A stretch of 64,000 bases of DNA from Nitrososphaerota archaeon. GTDB lineage: Archaea > Thermoproteota > EX4484-205 > JAAOZP01. The notes beneath the pieces are model-generated. The model was not told where the DNA came from and did not search any database. It was given only the letters and a program-made list of their open reading frames with translations. The stretch's first letter is position 1, and each line of letters begins with the position of its first letter. Made by a program: the position numbers and the translations under genes. The DNA is taken from assembly GCA_011605725.1 (NCBI GenBank), contig JAAOZP010000017.1:64001-128000 (forward strand), read 5' to 3'. Positions 33,827 through 42,048 of the stretch are shown here, piece after piece.

Positions 33827-34477
33827 CTAGCTACTCGTAAATATGCCTCTTGATTCCAGGAGTTGTTTCACCCTCTTCTTTCTCGACAATTCCTCCCTTT
33901 CTATTTCCTCCAGCTTTGACATTATCTTCTTCCTCTGGAGAGAAAGACCCGGGATTAAAACATGATCCAATGCTTTAGACCTTATTTCTATCTTTTTAAG
34001 TTCCTTGGTTAAAAACCTCTGGCGAACAGAAAGGTTAACATAATGTATTAGAGTGGTTTTGAAAAACTCATGCATCAACTCTGAGACCTGGTCGAGACTC
34101 TCGCTCGTCTCGAAAGGAGAGTATCCTCTGTCCTCTATCTTCGGAAGGCTTTTAGAATAAGAGATCTTGGGCATTAAGACCCCCTTTAAATTGTCCCATG
34201 TAAGACCTACATCGTCCAGCCTAGTTGTGGCCGCTGCAGCCCTTTTTACAATGTCTTCACCAAGCTCTTCTTCAACCTTATCTAGAAGCCCGTATATTCT
34301 AGGTAATTCTGTGTTAATTTTTATCGCAATCCCTTTGAGCTCGTCTCTGTTTTTAAGAAGCTCTTGATTAAGCAGTTGATATCTTTGTTTCAGAATCCTC
34401 GAGCTTCTAAGAGCTACGTTGAGTAGCTTATTCAGCTTAATCAGTTCGTACCTCGTAGGTTTAAAGACTAGGCTCAT
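33827..34477 (-). CDS. atpD: A/V-type ATP synthase subunit D (divergent)
   Basis: KPTR.EL.KL, L..E.....R..AL.HVLIP, LEE.EREE. Confidence 0.85.
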
Positions 34478-35799
34478 TTTAGAACAGAAAGCACGTCTAA
34501 CCCGAGATTTAAGGTTTCATCTATGCTTCTCTCTTCGTAGGCTCCTTGATTGATAAACTTTCTTTCAAAAACCTCAGAGAATTTAACATACCTCCTCTCT
34601 TCAGCCGTTAGAGCATCTTCGCCGAGTATCGTTGAAAGCTCCTTATTTCTTAAGCCTTCAGCATACGCTGATAGAAGGCGCGTGTAAATCTCAAAATGGT
34701 CTTTCCTCGTATACCCTTCACCAACACCATCCTTCATTAACCTAGATAATGATGCTAGAACGTTCATAGGCGGATAAATCCCGGAAAGATGTAGACTTCT
34801 GTCTAGAACTATCTGACCCTCAGTTATGTATCCGGTTAAATCCGGTATAGGGTGAGTAATATCGTCGTCCGGCATACTTAATATCGGCATCTGCGTTAAG
34901 GAGCCGTTTTTCCCAGAAACTATTCCCGCCCTCTCATAAATGCTTGCTAAGTCAGTATACATATAACCAGGATACCCTCTTCTGCCAGGTATCTCTCCCC
35001 TAGCTAGGCTAGCTTCCCTTAATGCTTCACAATAGTTACTCATATCGCTCATTACAACTAGGACATGATACTCTTTTTCGAAGGCAAGATACTCCGCTAT
35101 GGTTAATGCGACCCTAGGAGCAATGATTCTTTCAATAGTTGAATCGCTTTGAAGATTCAATATGAACACTGTCCTATCCAACACATGTGCTCTCTCCAAC
35201 TCCACGCGGAAGAAATCTGCTTCCTCATAAGAAGCCCCAAGCGTCAGGAAAACAACCGCGAAGGATTCCTGTTTTTTCAGAAGCTTAGCCTGTCTAACTA
35301 TTTGGGAAACAATCGTGTTATGTGGTAGGCCATAGGCGCTGAAAACCGGCAGTTTCTGACCTCTTATCAGGGATGATAAACCATCTATGGCTGAGATCCC
35401 GGTTTGAATAAAATCCCTAGGGGGTGAACGCGTCACAGGGTTTATCGGGTAACCGTTTACATCAAACTTTTCGCCAAAAATATCCGGCCCACCGTCGATT
35501 GCGTTGCCCATACTGTTCAAAACTCTTCCGAAAACCTCTTCACTCACAGGGATTCTCAAAGTGTCTCCTGTAAATCTGACGTAGGATCTGCCTATTGAAA
35601 TTCCAGCTGTGCCCTGCATAACCTGAATAACAGCAGCCCTCCCTTCCACTCCTATCACCTGGCCGAGTCTAGTTTCACCATCGACATCTATTTCCACGAT
35701 CTCGTTCAGCTTCACGCCATGAACATTATCAACTATTATCAAAGGCCCATTTATTGCTACGATGCTCCTGTATTTTACTGGTTTAGCCATACTGAGCAT
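34474..35799 (-). CDS. atpB: A/V-type ATP synthase subunit B
   Basis: [46 protein letters not shown]. Confidence 0.97.
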
Positions 35800-37558
35800 T
35801 CACCGGTCTCTGCAGCTCTGAGAATTTTCCAATAATCCTTTCTTTAATCTGTGTCGCCGCATCAATCAACTTATCCAGAGGCAGACGCTTAAGCTCCAGT
35901 ATTTCCCTGTTTATATTTGGGTCAAGAGCCCTTTCTAAAGGAATGTTGTTTGAAACAGCTTCAAACAAATGTTCCCTGTAATAATCGATTACCTCGGCAA
36001 TCATAATGGTCTTTCTAGGATCCGAGTAAGCATCTTTTTCGTCGAGGGCGCTTTGCTTCAGAAAAGCCTCTCTAGTTAGTGTTGAGACCTCTATAACTGC
36101 TCTTTCACGATCACTTAGAGCACTAATCCCCATTAACCTTACTATTTGCATCAACTCGTCCTCCTCTCTTAAAATGCTTAACATATTTTCCCTGAGGATC
36201 TTCCATTTTTCGCTCACGTTCAACTCCCACCAGAAGGCGACGTTCTCCAGGTAAAGAGAGTAGCTTTGCAGCCAGTTTATAGCTGGGAAATGGCGTCTGT
36301 AAGCCAATTCTGAATCCAGAGCCCAGAATACTTTTACTGTTTGAAGAGTCTTCTGGGTAACAGGCTCGCTGAAGTCCCCGCCTGGTGGAGAAACCGCGCC
36401 CATTATCGTTAATGATCCTACCCTGCCGTTTAAAGTGGTGACCTTACCCGCTCTACTGTAGAAGCTTTGGAGACGTGAAGTAAGGTATGCGGGGAAACCT
36501 TCTTCCCCTGGAAGCTCTTCCATTCTTGAACTTAACTCTCTAAGGGCCTCAGCCCACCTGGACGTGGAGTCGGTGATTAAAACAACATTATAACCCATAT
36601 CCCTAAAATACTCGGCAAAAGTTATCCCTAGGAATATGCTTGACTCTCTGGCTGCAACAGGCATATTGCTAGTGTTGGCTATTATTATCGACCTCTCCAT
36701 TAACGGTCTACCGCTTCTCATATCAATCAGGCTCTTGTATTTCTCTAAAAGATCTGCCATTTCGTTACCTCTTTCCCCACAGCCGACATAAATCACCACA
36801 TCAGCGTCAACTTGCTTTGAAACCTGCTGTAGAGTCATCGTCTTACCTGAGCCGAATGGCCCGGGGATTGCTGCAGTACCTCCTTTAGCTATAGGAAACA
36901 TGAAATCTATGATCCTTACTCCAGTTATAAGCGGCTCATCAGGATCCAGTTTCTCCCTAAACGGCCTAGGAACTTTAACGGGCCATTCATGCGCCATCTT
37001 AACATCTAATACTTTTCCCTGAGAATCCTTAACCTCGGCTATCTTGTCAAGGATCGTGTAGTCTCCCTCGTTAGCCAAGTAAACCAGGTTCCCTCTAACA
37101 TTCGGGGGAACGAGAATCATATGCGTTAGTGATTTTGTCTCCTCAACCTTTCCAATCACCTCCCCTCCAAACACCTGGTTCGGAGGATTATCCACAGGTA
37201 TGAAACGCCATTTCTTCTCATGGTCAAGTCTTCTCGTACGCACACCCGCCTTAACGAATGAATCTGCCTGCTTAACAATTTCTTCAAGAGGCCTTTGCAG
37301 CCCATCGTATACTTGAGTCAACAAACCTGGACCAAGCTCGGCGGAAAGTAAACGACCTAGCGCTACAACCTTCTCCCCGTATCCGAGGCCACTAGTATCC
37401 TCATACACCTGTATGAAAACCCTGTTTACGCTAATTCTATTCACCTCACCTATTAAACCCTTTTCACCTATTAAGACAACTTCCCCCATGATAGGCGATG
37501 GAATGTCTTCAGCAATGACTACAAACCCCGAGACTTTTATAACCTTTCCTTCTCTCGT
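35783..37558 (-). CDS. atpA: A/V-type ATP synthase subunit A (catalytic), probable ACG start at 37558
   Basis: [42 protein letters not shown]; the conserved N-terminal [12 protein letters not shown] lies upstream of the first ATG (37489). Confidence 0.95.
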
Positions 37559-37565
37559 TGTGTTT

Positions 37566-37775
37566 TCACCTCCTCCTGGGGATCCTAATTAGAATCGGTA
37601 GATCCTTATCATAATCGTAAGGATAGTATTCGTCCGCCACCAGGAAGACGCAAACATCTTTGCTTTCCTTAACTATTCTTAAAACATCCTCCCTGCTTGC
37701 TACTACCTTTCCCCTTATTCCCGCTAACGAGAAAGCAACCACTGTTCTCTCATCACCTAAAACTTCTATTTTCAT
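37566..37775 (-). CDS. atpF: A/V-type ATP synthase subunit F (short, 69 aa)
   Basis: MKIEVLGDERTVVAFSLAGI, P.LI.IP; lies between C and A. Confidence 0.85.
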   Translation of the reverse strand: MKIEVLGDERTVVAFSLAGIRGKVVASREDVLRIVKESKDVCVFLVADEYYPYDYDKDLPILIRIPRRR

Positions 37776-37777
37776 TC

Positions 37778-38524
37778 TCAAACTACACCTCTTTTTCCAA
37801 TCATACATTCATGCGATACTATAAAGTCCATGAGTCCCGCGAACCCAGAATCATAGTTTTTACAAACACTACGATAGTAGTTTTGCAAGCTAATCCTATC
37901 TCTAACCCCATACAGTTCAAACATTCTTTCAGCCAGCTTCTGCTCGTTCATAAGGTCTTTAACAGACAGTAGCCCACATGGTATGAAGAATCTTTCAAAA
38001 TCCGAAACCCTCTTCAGGAGTCTTAGATTTAACAGATCCACCTTGACTGCTACGAGCATTTTAGCAAGCTCGTCGTCTGGCTTTTTGGGAAGAATGTTGC
38101 TAAACCATGAAAAGTAGAATTTATCAATGTTAGAGGCGAAATCGCTGTAACTAACAAGGTTTTCAAAATCCTCTCTCCTCATACCGTCGAAAGTATCTGA
38201 TAGAAGGCCCAGTAGTCCCGTTATGTCTCCATTGCTCACTATATCTAGCAATCTCTCTTTTCTAATCCTTATAAATGGTCTTGAGAATTCGTATCGAACA
38301 CCCCCAAGTATTTGTGCAATAGCATCCTTTATGTTTTCAAAATCATTTCTCAAAATCCACCATTCTACAAAGGGTCTCGCATCCTCCGGGAGGAAATCGA
38401 TCAGATTCAACAATCCAGAGTAAAGTATAGAAAGCCTCTCCCTTTCTCCTTCAGCTGAACGTAATCGAGTATCTAAAAAGGTTAACCTGGTTTCCACGTA
38501 GGAGTAATTACCAGTCTCCAGCAT
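37778..38524 (-). CDS. atpC: A/V-type ATP synthase subunit C/d (short, divergent)
   Basis: Y.YV.TR, DFENIK, IDKFYF, VDLLNL, FIP.G motifs; operon position. Confidence 0.7.
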   Translation of the reverse strand: MLETGNYSYVETRLTFLDTRLRSAEGERERLSILYSGLLNLIDFLPEDARPFVEWWILRNDFENIKDAIAQILGGVRYEFSRPFIRIRKERLLDIVSNGDITGLLGLLSDTFDGMRREDFENLVSYSDFASNIDKFYFSWFSNILPKKPDDELAKMLVAVKVDLLNLRLLKRVSDFERFFIPCGLLSVKDLMNEQKLAERMFELYGVRDRISLQNYYRSVCKNYDSGFAGLMDFIVSHECMIGKRGVV

Positions 38525-39146
38525 TCAGATCACCAAAAATAAGATTATAAAGTTCTTCTCTTATTGTTTTATACTGAAGTTTAATTCTATTCTCAATTGT
38601 TTCATCAACTTCTTGAAGGCTGTCTCCAGAAACTATTACTACCCCACCTACGGTTGTTAAATCCGGAATTATCTTAAACCTTTTTCCATCGTAAGGCTTG
38701 ATGAGATGTTTAACTATCTTCTCGTCTCTTTTGTCGATATGAAGAATTATTTCTTCTCCGCTAACCATATCGAGAGCATTGGCTATGGCTTTCGATAGAA
38801 AAGCCTTATAACGCTCCTCTTGCTCCCTTATCTTTTGAAGAGCAGAAATAGCGGCGGAGATTATAGAGTCGATTAAGCTCCACACATGGTCATAAACTCT
38901 TTTCCTATACTCCATTTTTATTTTTATAAGTTCCTGCTCCTTAAACCTTTCTAAATCCTCTACTCCTTGCTTGATTAATTTTCTTTTTTTCTCTTCAGCA
39001 TTTTTCCTAGCGCGGGCAATAATTTCTTCAGCATTCCTCCTCGCTTCGCTAAGCATTTTTTCTCTAACTTCTTCAGCCTGTTCCAGTATTCTTCTCGAAA
39101 TATTTTCAGAAGCCTTTAAAGTCGTCAGAATACTTGAGTCGTTCAT
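38508..39146 (-). CDS. atpE: A/V-type ATP synthase subunit E
   Basis: Long N-terminal coiled coil, GGVVI.S.D....D.TIE.R. Confidence 0.85.
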   Translation of the reverse strand: MNDSSILTTLKASENISRRILEQAEEVREKMLSEARRNAEEIIARARKNAEEKKRKLIKQGVEDLERFKEQELIKIKMEYRKRVYDHVWSLIDSIISAAISALQKIREQEERYKAFLSKAIANALDMVSGEEIILHIDKRDEKIVKHLIKPYDGKRFKIIPDLTTVGGVVIVSGDSLQEVDETIENRIKLQYKTIREELYNLIFGDLNAGDW

Positions 39147-39481
39147 GCCTCCAGCACCCTTTTTATAACCAGTTCAACACTCTCGTTTCTCTTATCGTTA
39201 ATGATTTTTTCAAATCTTTTTAAAAAACTTTGAAGTTTCTCTTCACAAGATTTTCTATAGTTCTCGATTTCACTCTCAACCTTCTTCTCATATCTCTTAA
39301 CCTCTTCCTCCGCCTCTCTGTCGGCTTCAACTTCTATTTTAACAGCTTCTTCCTCAGCCTCCAGTATTATTTTATCAGCCTCCTTCTTAGCATGTTCAAT
39401 AATGCTCTTAGCCTTCTCCTCGATTTTCATCAGGTTCTCCAATTCTCTGTAAAAATCTTCCTCCCGAATAAAAGTTGTCAA
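39143..39481 (-). CDS. A/V-type ATP synthase subunit H/G (peripheral stalk)
   Basis: 112-aa charged coiled coil (A..II..A..EA..I) ending V.LVI..V; inside the operon. Confidence 0.72.
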   Translation of the reverse strand: MTTFIREEDFYRELENLMKIEEKAKSIIEHAKKEADKIILEAEEEAVKIEVEADREAEEEVKRYEKKVESEIENYRKSCEEKLQSFLKRFEKIINDKRNESVELVIKRVLEA

Positions 39482-39482
39482 A

Positions 39483-40181
39483 CTAAAGCATCCCCACTCC
39501 TCTTAGAAGCAGGATTGCGACAAGCAGACCGTATATTGCTATGCTTTCAATCAAGACGACAAAGACGATACTTTTACCGAACGAGTCTTCATCCTTTAGG
39601 AGAGAGGAAATCGCCTTTGCACCTGTTTTACCTAAATAATAGCCAGAGCCACCAGTTATGCATACGACTATTGAGGATACTAATGAGGTGTATGCAGAGA
39701 CGCTGTCAACCTGATGAGGCACTCCAGCCCCACTAAGTAAGCCAACCCCTCTTATTATCACTATCGAGACCAGAAGACCATATATCACTATGCTTTCAGG
39801 TAAAACAGTAAATATCAAAGATTTTCCGAAAAGTTCCTCCCTCTCGCGTATAGCGCCTATGGCGGCTGAACCAGCGATCCCTATGCCTAAGCCTGAGAAT
39901 AAGCCGGTTAAGCCGACTGATAAACCTGATCCGAGTAAGGATATTGAGGTGTTGAAGTCATTCACATTGCTTCCATTCATTATTAGAAAGAGAGCTACTA
40001 GTAGGCCATAAATAACAGGTGTCTCAGCAAGAACAGTGAAAACCAAGGCTAACCCGAATCTCTCAGGCTTCTCCGCAATCATTCTTGAGCTTACTGAAGC
40101 AGTCATAGCAATACCGAGTATAGACCCTACTCCTGAAAAGCCGATAGCGGACAGCACGGAGATCAGCGTGAGTACATCCAT
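39483..40181 (-). CDS. atpK: A/V-type ATP synthase proteolipid K/c, triplicated (three hairpins, six TM helices)
   Basis: Three repeats ending LAETPVIYGLL, LPESIVIYGLL, LIESIAIYGLL. Confidence 0.92.
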   Translation of the reverse strand: MDVLTLISVLSAIGFSGVGSILGIAMTASVSSRMIAEKPERFGLALVFTVLAETPVIYGLLVALFLIMNGSNVNDFNTSISLLGSGLSVGLTGLFSGLGIGIAGSAAIGAIREREELFGKSLIFTVLPESIVIYGLLVSIVIIRGVGLLSGAGVPHQVDSVSAYTSLVSSIVVCITGGSGYYLGKTGAKAISSLLKDEDSFGKSIVFVVLIESIAIYGLLVAILLLRGVGML

Positions 40182-40206: not shown

Positions 40207-42048
40207 CTATGGGAATGACAATGGTTTAAAAACATTTCCCGTGGGCTCGAAAAACTTACTGAAAAACTCGACGAAATGAAGCCTTAAAGAATGGGCAAAC
40301 GCGATGAAACTCTCTATGAAAACTATGAAAAAGTGGGTTATTAACAGTATTATGCCGCCTGCCAGTAGGCCAAAGACCCCTCCTGAGAATAGTAATGGAG
40401 AAGCGAGAAGCGTGAATGCTCTCGATATTCCAGCATGAGATATGTTTATAGCGACTATCCTAGCGTATGAGACTACGTTGCTCACTAGCCTAGTAACCTC
40501 CATCAGATTTCTTGGATTAACTATCGTCAAGAGAATTAGGCCTGAGGCAGCGAATATTGAGCCGGAGTAAAGGTAGAAATCTCCATTCAAGTATTGTAAA
40601 TAGTACAGTAGGATTATGATTGAGCCGTGAAGTATCATGAGCCAAGCTAGTTTTTCTCCGAATGCGTTTTTCAACCTTTTCATTATAAGCTCGTTTACAA
40701 AGCCTATTGCAAGGCCTAACGTGAGCTGAATGACTCCGAGCAATATTGCTATTTGAAGGAAATACATCGGGTCTTCAAACCCGTTAAACCATATGACAGG
40801 TATTTTTATCGCATCACCCATGAATTCTCCTGTGAGAAATCCGAAGACTATTGAGGAAATGCTTATCGTAACCAGTATTTCGCTCAGCATCTTACCGTTA
40901 TGGCTTCTACTACCCAATCCCCGGTAGAGCAATAGCGAGAAGGTTAGAAGCAATATACCGTCGAAGACATCTGCAAACATTAATCCAAAGAATATCGCGT
41001 AAGTCAATGATAAAAACGGGGTTGGATCTATCTGCCTATAACCAGGTGCTCCGAACATTAGCATTATTGTTTCGAAGCTCCGGATAATCGGAGGGTTTTC
41101 AAAAGCGACCGGAGGATCATCCCATTTTTCAGGATCCTCGACTGAAAGCTCATAATTATATCCTTTTTTAAGCGTGGAAATAAGCTTCTCTAAATCTTTT
41201 TCTTTAACCCACCCTTCTAGATACGTGGAGGATCCTTTTCTGACGATTTTTTCTTTAGCCTCCAGTATTTCAATTCTTTTTAAAAGAACTTTTCTAAGTA
41301 AGAATATCTGTTGCTTCAGCGAGTTTACATCGACGATTTCCTCGATATCTTCAACCTCCTCGGTTTCAATCCCCTCCTTTTCCTCGGAAAGACTTGCAAC
41401 ACCGTAGCTGCTTAAAGCCCCCTCTAGGATTGAAAGGTTTTGAACAAGAGTAACGATCTTTACTTTGAAAACACCTTTTAAGACTCCGGATTCATTTAGT
41501 GAGACTAGACACTCCTTTCTAACAGACTCCGGTATTATTTCGATAAACCTATCTATGCTGCTCCTATTAATCCAGCCTTCCCATATGATCAGGTAGTCTG
41601 TCCTCCTGGTTCTTCTCAGCACGATAATGTTATTCTTCAATAGGGATGATATTCTTAGAGAAAGCTGTTTCTTTGTAGAAAGCTTCATCATTCTAAGTTT
41701 CTCTAATTTGTTAAGCTTATCCTCAGCATTGTTTAAAATACTTTGAGCATCAGCATAGATTTCATCCTCTTCCTCATCAGAAAATCCGATGCTGACGCCT
41801 CTTCCAACCAACTGGGCTATAATTCCTTCTTTAGGAAGCTTGTTCAATATAGTGTCACATCTTCTAACAAGGTTCAACAAGCCATTCTTCTCCACACTTA
41901 TATTAACATCTTTGTTAAATCCTGAGAGATTCTTTTCCACAGTCTTCACCTGTAATATCGCGAGCTTGCCTACTTCCCTTAGAAATCTATCTTCCTGCTC
42001 AGCGGGAAGCAGCAGTTTCACTTTCTTCATCCTAGCGGGCCTAAACAT
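40207..42048 (-). CDS. atpI: A/V-type ATP synthase subunit I/a
   Basis: MFRP..M.K, EGWV, DPTP....IFFGLMFAD, essential Arg in VSYARI, LRLHFVEFFSKF. Confidence 0.93.
   Translation of the reverse strand: MFRPARMKKVKLLLPAEQEDRFLREVGKLAILQVKTVEKNLSGFNKDVNISVEKNGLLNLVRRCDTILNKLPKEGIIAQLVGRGVSIGFSDEEEDEIYADAQSILNNAEDKLNKLEKLRMMKLSTKKQLSLRISSLLKNNIIVLRRTRRTDYLIIWEGWINRSSIDRFIEIIPESVRKECLVSLNESGVLKGVFKVKIVTLVQNLSILEGALSSYGVASLSEEKEGIETEEVEDIEEIVDVNSLKQQIFLLRKVLLKRIEILEAKEKIVRKGSSTYLEGWVKEKDLEKLISTLKKGYNYELSVEDPEKWDDPPVAFENPPIIRSFETIMLMFGAPGYRQIDPTPFLSLTYAIFFGLMFADVFDGILLLTFSLLLYRGLGSRSHNGKMLSEILVTISISSIVFGFLTGEFMGDAIKIPVIWFNGFEDPMYFLQIAILLGVIQLTLGLAIGFVNELIMKRLKNAFGEKLAWLMILHGSIIILLYYLQYLNGDFYLYSGSIFAASGLILLTIVNPRNLMEVTRLVSNVVSYARIVAINISHAGISRAFTLLASPLLFSGGVFGLLAGGIILLITHFFIVFIESFIAFAHSLRLHFVEFFSKFFEPTGNVFKPLSFP

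Follow-up and report, generated by a model that had tools for sequence, protein, structure and literature searches.

By sequence, the open reading frame at positions 39483..40181 of the window (the whole 64,000-nucleotide stretch of archaeal DNA that was analysed) is confirmed as the gene for subunit K/c of an A/V-type ATPase, in which three hairpins are fused into one chain and the ion-carrying acid is kept in each of them. Taking the explanation as a whole, we consider it likely that this three-hairpin protein is the sole c subunit of its enzyme, that it forms a ring with 3n sites, that the coupling ion is most probably H+ and that ATP-driven extrusion is somewhat favoured. The design of K is conserved and occurs in several groups of uncultured archaea. 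It varies a theme already known from other fused rotor subunits and is no new machine.

Architecture of subunit K

The gene (atpK/ntpK, rotor-ring subunit K/c) lies on the minus strand and runs from ATG to stop, with the stop codon included in the coordinates given above; the protein has 232 aa. Three stretches of it match the Pfam family PF00137 (ATP-synt_C), far above chance since the E-value is 1.1e-44 and the score is 151 bits against a cut-off of 24. Hairpin 1 (residues 1-76, positions 39954..40181, minus strand) carries E53 (codon 40023-40025) in AETPVIYG, with I24 at the inner-helix site position. Hairpin 2 (residues 77-152, positions 39726..39953, minus strand) carries E129 (codon 39795-39797) in PESIVIYG, with I100 at the corresponding position. 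Hairpin 3 (residues 153-232, positions 39486..39725, minus strand) carries E212 (codon 39546-39548) in IESIAIYG, with L183 at that position and a conserved basic residue, K185. The motif E-[TS]-x-x-I-Y-G is thus present three times, as ETPVIYG at residue 53, ESIVIYG at 129 and ESIAIYG at 212. The three hairpins are 28-36% identical in pairwise comparison, and the Glu together with I-Y-G-L-L-V is among the invariant columns of their alignment. The sole Gln of the protein, Q157, is located in the loop that joins hairpins 2 and 3. A triplicated c subunit with this motif in each of three hairpins had been proposed in the first-pass annotation, and its coordinates proved to be exact.

An AlphaFold2 model of K, calculated from an alignment of 18 family members, has a mean pLDDT of 94.4 and a pTM of 0.90. 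It contains six long and confidently modelled helices, not fewer, at residues 3-37, 39-72, 76-113, 115-146, 160-196 (with a kink at 177) and 198-228, which pair into three hairpins. The helix count is based on the Pfam domains and on this model; Kyte-Doolittle hydropathy on its own picks out mostly outer helices, since the inner ones are rich in Gly, Ala and Ser. In a Foldseek search, the best matches of the model were chain A of PDB 2bl2 (NtpK of E. hirae) and V-type c subunits, with target TM-scores of 0.84-0.91, and these matches span only about 160 residues. No solved six-helix c subunit was found among the structural matches, and the assembly of the K ring is therefore argued by analogy.

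Operon and genome context

K is part of an operon in the order I-K-H-E-C-F-A-B-D, with all genes on the minus strand. Directly upstream of K lies the gene for subunit I/a (40207..42048, PF01496), which provides the stator and the ion channel. In an alignment with NtpI of E. hirae and bovine subunit a, this protein retains both stator arginines, in VSYARIV and HSLRLHF. The part of the operon downstream of K (33827..39481) encodes an H/G-like subunit (39143-39481, PF16999), subunit E (38508-39146, PF01991), subunit C/d (37778-38524, PF01992), subunit F (37566-37808, PF01990), subunit A (atpA, 35783-37489 or longer, PF00006), subunit B (34474-35799, PF00006) and subunit D (33827-34477, PF01813). 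The atpA frame is open upstream of its first ATG (window positions 37490-37588), and this extension reads like the conserved N-terminus of subunit A (GKVIKVSG...). In the closest congeners, the open frames of subunit A have 593-601 aa.

The genome comprises 2.23 Mb in 20 contigs and is 93% complete. A PF00137 search of the whole genome returned K as the only c gene, its three matches being the three hairpins of K; a second c gene, which would allow a hybrid ring, was not found in this 93%-complete genome. By name, the nearest records are hot-spring MAGs of Candidatus Brockarchaeota, such as DRTY-6.bins.80, in which K is 91% and subunit A 83% identical and the operon order is shared. The host genome is a Brockarchaeota-like MAG. 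The identical operon order was observed in two Brockarchaeota loci, L016 and L018.

Ring stoichiometry and ions per ATP

By analogy, K would form a homo-oligomeric ring, and we infer that all three sites turn over. Several copies (n) would close into a ring of 3n hairpins with 3n sites. The mid-membrane Glu of each hairpin would take a single ion past the subunit I arginines, and a full turn would move 3n ions for 3 ATP, that is n ions per ATP. The single c gene in the 93%-complete genome is the reason to expect 3n hairpins in the ring, and 3n sites if all Glu work, so that the restriction to multiples of three sites that had been proposed from the sequence is well supported. The integer ion/ATP ratio that was proposed with it stands insofar as n ions per ATP would follow from the anatomy. 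It is not special in itself, since c9, c12 and c15 rings are known. Solved A/V rings have 12 to about 20 hairpins, which corresponds to 4 to 7 copies of a three-hairpin K. The number of rotor sites matters for physiology, as it sets the ions per ATP and thus decides whether ATP can be made from a weak gradient or ions can be pumped against a steep one.

Physiological direction

ATP-driven H+ extrusion appears somewhat more likely than net ATP synthesis, albeit with low certainty, and the enzyme would probably be reversible. Extrusion is favoured because searches of the 93%-complete genome did not find PF00361 or PF00146 (complex-I-type), Rnf or COX1 (haem-copper), because the operon is patchy within the genus and because the lineage is described as fermentative, with an ATPase that may build the membrane potential (Brockarchaeota; PMC8065059, De Anda et al.). 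The operon was found in 4 of 17 genomes of the same GTDB genus (G001-G016 and the window's own). A different A subunit, with 50-54% identity, is present in two genomes of the genus (G009 and G015), and five genus genomes that are at least 92% complete gave no PF00006 match above cut-off. With this patchy distribution, the rotary ATPase looks dispensable, or repeatedly lost or gained.

The best-surviving alternative is that the main role of the enzyme is ATP synthesis, with a gearing suited to low driving force, for instance with five to seven copies of K and 15-21 H+ per turn. We regard this as unlikely, if still deserving serious consideration. The gearing speaks for it and against a pump: K carries one site per hairpin, compared to one site per two hairpins in V-type c subunits (PMC9171764), and one site per hairpin is typical of synthases and not of dedicated pumps. 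Moreover, two membrane pyrophosphatase genes (PF03030) are encoded outside the window (G000:C7:254811-256796 and G000:C4:230390-232297) and could build a gradient. However, ATP synthesis at low driving force requires both a large n and a source for the gradient, and four copies would give an ordinary ratio of 4 H+/ATP. The missing complex-I-type, Rnf and haem-copper pumps and the fermentative description of the lineage (PMC8065059) also count against it, as does the absence of the ATPase from several near-complete congeners, which indicates that it does not serve the genus as core energy converter. The first-pass annotation had put forward synthesis at low driving force as a possibility; the lack of these pumps and the five congeners without A and B subunits argue against that suggestion, and extrusion remains the direction that we somewhat prefer.

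Coupling ion

The coupling ion at the K sites would most likely be H+, because the polar ligands of Na+ sites are replaced by I, L or P and the amide ligands are gone. In an alignment with NtpK (PDB 2bl2), the Na+ ligands L61 (backbone O), T64, Q65, Q110 and E139 correspond to L51, T54, P55, I100 and E129 of K, and the Gly at the lost carboxylate of NtpK hairpin 1 aligns with E53. In a profile alignment of 98 hairpins, the inner-helix position that is Gln in Na+ rings (Q32 in I. tartaricus, Q110 in NtpK) is I/I/L in the three hairpins of K (I24, I100 and L183), the carboxylate is E/E/E and the residue next to it is T/S/S. The Glu+2 position is P/I/I (P55, I131 and I214), so that the polar ligand supplied from the neighbouring outer helix by Q65 in NtpK, or by the ETQ motif of archaeal Na+-type proteins, is absent. 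A Tyr at Glu+4 is present in all three hairpins (Y58, Y134 and Y217). Each K site therefore retains a backbone carbonyl, one hydroxyl (Ser/Thr) and the Glu, and both amide ligands are missing. Among the features by which Na+-type sites are recognised, K has the Ser/Thr after the Glu and the Tyr, and it lacks the inner-helix Gln/Glu and a second polar ligand. Crenarchaeal c subunits without the Gln, such as those of Ignicoccus (IAETPAIY), Cenarchaeum (MVESIAIY) and Pyrobaculum (LAEAIAIY), have been classed as predicted H+ types (PMC2359735 supplement 1, Mulkidjanian et al.). The replacement of the Na+-type glutamines by I, L or P and the probable coupling to H+ had both been read from the sequence beforehand. 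The former is borne out by the profile alignment and by the pairing of E129 with NtpK E139 and of I100 with NtpK Q110; the latter agrees with the published criteria (PMC2359735) and is a well-supported prediction from motifs.

It seems improbable to us that the ring is nevertheless coupled to Na+, with water or the Ser, Thr and Tyr side chains completing the coordination in place of the missing Gln. Each hairpin does keep E-T or E-S together with the Tyr four residues on, and weak Na+ binding via the retained Ser/Thr and Tyr may occur. The scaffold also appears to be compatible with Na+: the triple c subunits of Bathyarchaeia (L022-L028 and L030-L032, e.g. L024:5911-6615) have Q/E/Q at the inner-helix position, ET/ET/ES and the Tyr, which is the full set of Q/E, E, S/T and Y. 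In Brockarchaeota, Micrarchaeota and three further groups, the inner-helix position is I, M or L. The complete Na+-type ligand set in all three hairpins of the Bathyarchaeial proteins suggests that the ion may have been switched on one scaffold. In K itself, however, two of the five NtpK Na+ ligands (Q65 and Q110) are P/I/I and I/I/L, and the published criteria predict H+ for such sequences (PMC2359735).

Conservation of the three glutamates

E53, E129 and E212 show no variation across 18 diverse members of the family (31-85% identity to K) or in any of the 22 genome-derived relatives; close homologues of K (75-92% identity, 230-232 aa) likewise all have the three Glu. Compared with three congeners, dN/dS is 0.04-0.07 in each hairpin separately, so that purifying selection is strong throughout the protein. 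Where sites have been lost in known fusions, another residue stands in place of the Glu: a Gln in Methanococcales, a Gly in NtpK and in V-type c subunits. Because the Glu residues are invariant, dN/dS is low in every hairpin and lost sites elsewhere show a replaced Glu, the conservation pattern fits three working sites better than a protein in which one or two have decayed.

It is less probable still than coupling to Na+ that not all three Glu carry ions, but just one or two, and that the others are structural or neutralised, for example by a basic residue in helix 5. The hairpins have diverged to 28-36% identity, each with its own conserved flavour, and in hairpin 3, 78 of 90 family members have a basic residue, K or R, near the level of the site. 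This residue, K185 (codon 39627-39629), is located in helix 5 two residues past the inner-helix site position; of the 90 sequences, 41 have K there and 37 have R. In principle it could affect one site. Helical periodicity, however, leads us to expect that the +2 position faces the ring lumen and not the site, and in NtpK the equivalent position is occupied by K112 beside a working site. Furthermore, the three Glu of K are invariant across the whole range of 31-85% identity, each in the same E-[ST]-x-x-I-Y-G setting, and no such swap as in the Q of Methanococcales or the G of NtpK and V-type c is seen. We therefore retain the reading with three working sites.

That the triple is an artefact of assembly or gene calling (such as the collapse or expansion of a tandem repeat), or is cleaved after translation into single hairpins, is highly improbable. 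An ORF of 230-232 aa with 75-92% identity recurs in over 20 assemblies made independently, and a repeat that had collapsed or expanded would not show hairpins as diverged as these (28-36%). The linkers are conserved as well as short, and each hairpin is the positional orthologue of the corresponding hairpin in other phyla.

Comparison with known c subunits

The triplicated proteolipid of Methanocaldococcus jannaschii was reportedly described by Ruppert et al. in 1999 (J Biol Chem). Like K, the AtpK proteins of M. jannaschii and M. maripaludis (NF004913 / PRK06271) have three hairpins and six helices in one chain of about 220-230 aa, and in Methanococcales AtpK is the sole c subunit of the A-type ATPase, with a gene that adjoins that of subunit I. 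K is collinear with the NF004913 profile (residues 7-229 on 10-218 of 220) but reaches only 143.4 bits, below the cut-off of 211. The two differ in their sites. In M. jannaschii and M. maripaludis the motifs are PQTQ / PETQ / PETF (PMC2359735 supplement), so that two of the three Glu are kept, as had been stated correctly for M. jannaschii in the first-pass annotation. Hairpin 1 of Methanococcales AtpK thus has a Gln (PQTQ) and the protein two sites per three hairpins, whereas E53 is present in K. Hairpins 2 and 3 of the methanogen protein carry the Na+ motif (inner-helix Gln, with ETQ or ETF), and the hairpins of K are without Gln ligands. In a tree of hairpins, K-type and Methanococcales-type sequences do not mix, in contrast to what a shared origin of the triplication would give.

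The duplicated c subunits of Methanothermobacter thermautotrophicus and Methanobrevibacter and the 13-hairpin c subunit of Methanopyrus kandleri resemble K in that every hairpin has a carboxylate (PMC2359735). With a carboxylate in every fused hairpin, fusion alters the allowed ring sizes and leaves the sites per hairpin unchanged. These proteins differ from K in having two or 13 hairpins, each with the full Na+ motif (Q...ETQ), and in belonging to methanogens. The single-hairpin c subunits of Thermoproteota, namely those of Ignicoccus hospitalis (IAETPAIYG), Cenarchaeum symbiosum (MVESIAIYG) and Pyrobaculum (LAEAIAIYG), have the same site chemistry as K: a Glu followed by Ser, Thr or Ala, a Tyr at +4 and a hydrophobic inner-helix residue. 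With one hairpin per chain, unlike K, their ring size is not tied to multiples of three.

Among solved proteins, NtpK of E. hirae (2bl2) and the eukaryotic V-type 16-kDa c subunit are the best matches of K in sequence and structure. They share the hairpin fold and the position of the Glu in the last outer helix. Unlike K, they have two hairpins and one Glu, with Gly at the other position, and NtpK binds Na+ via T64, Q65 and Q110. When the eukaryotic 16-kDa subunit was aligned to K, a Gly was found opposite E53 and a Glu opposite E129, in agreement with the earlier statement that duplicated c subunits of the eukaryotic type keep one of two carboxylates.

Distribution and origin of the triple

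A scan with one genome per species identified 22 loci with Glu-Glu-Glu triples. The hosts are Brockarchaeota, Bathyarchaeia (including the closed chromosomes CP070773 and CP070826), Micrarchaeota/Micrarchaeia and a few bins with other names. Six-helix proteolipids outside Methanococci, for which the first-pass annotation had suggested a survey, are thus present in Brockarchaeota, Bathyarchaeia, Micrarchaeota and others. Among the three-hairpin chains that were fetched, in a sample biased towards K, 88 were Glu-Glu-Glu and 4 Gln-Glu-Glu. The rarity that had been implied for K is not supported, on two grounds: these 88 proteins from several archaeal groups keep the Glu in every hairpin, and fusions that keep every site were already known, with 2 of 2 in Methanothermobacter and 13 of 13 in M. 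kandleri (PMC2359735). In the part of the full-text literature on fused proteolipids and on Brockarchaeota that was covered, we found no description of a three-hairpin, three-carboxylate c subunit of the H+ type.

In the hairpin tree, the first hairpins of all Glu-Glu-Glu triples fall into a single clade (SH-aLRT 98) and the third hairpins into another (SH-aLRT 96). Neither clade includes hairpins from any position (first, middle or last) in the Gln-type fusions, which have 3 to 5 hairpins and resemble the Methanococcales protein. Hairpins 2 and 3 of K show a weak grouping with c subunits of one or two hairpins from the same phylum; the tree is built on 76 columns only and resolves depth weakly. 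The simplest reading of these sequences would be one old triplication common to the Glu-Glu-Glu lineages and independent of that in Methanococcales. A recent transfer of the whole operon together with the triple c was also considered. It is unsupported, because subunit A is no closer to Bathyarchaeia and Micrarchaeota (36-48% identity) than to other Thermoproteota (50-57%).

Implications for rotary motors

The mechanism proposed for K is not new, and the value of the Glu-Glu-Glu family is comparative. Archaeal fused c subunits have been called an 'evolutionary playground' for gearing (PMC9171764). In the literature covered, the documented three-hairpin case has lost one site; the Glu-Glu-Glu family fills this gap with three hairpins, three sites and residues of the proton type. 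As this family shows, fusion without loss of sites is common in uncultured Thermoproteota and DPANN archaea. Whether this is an A-type ATPase family that is genetically fixed to 3n active sites, with a scaffold that has been switched between an H+ set (I/M/L) and a Na+-like set (Q/E/Q), seems to us evenly balanced. If true, the motor would be symmetry-matched and would use an integral number of ions for each ATP. The two sets would also be a naturally matched pair in which ion selectivity, and what symmetry mismatch contributes to rotary motors, could be studied. A 3n ring would then provide a hard-wired exception to the older view that the symmetry of the ring must be mismatched with the three catalytic sites.

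Other fused c subunits

A profile-free exhaustive search returned 1816 relatives, including chains of 8, 10, 11, 12 and 15 hairpins, many of which keep every carboxylate. Examples of such fused c subunits from metagenomes are P0121 (1139 aa, 15 hairpins), P0146 (968 aa, 11 hairpins), P0123 (784 aa, 10 hairpins) and P0124 (631 aa, 8 hairpins). Several of these four have a carboxylate in every hairpin together with proton-type residues (LAEALGIY 15 times in P0121; also L[VI]ESAAIY). As with the M. kandleri protein, a rotor may consist of one such chain, although not of the Na+ type. In other Thermoproteota (L011:1480-1956 in G040 and L012:1465-1932 in G017), c subunits of two hairpins were found that have proton-type residues and a Glu in each hairpin; one of the two hosts is from the order to which the window's genome belongs. 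These multi-hairpin chains and two-hairpin relatives indicate that c hairpins are commonly fused in uncultured microbes. In a further protein, P0075 (365 aa, from a JGI metagenome), a three-hairpin Gln-Glu-Glu c subunit is located behind PKD-type domains (PF00801 and PF18911).
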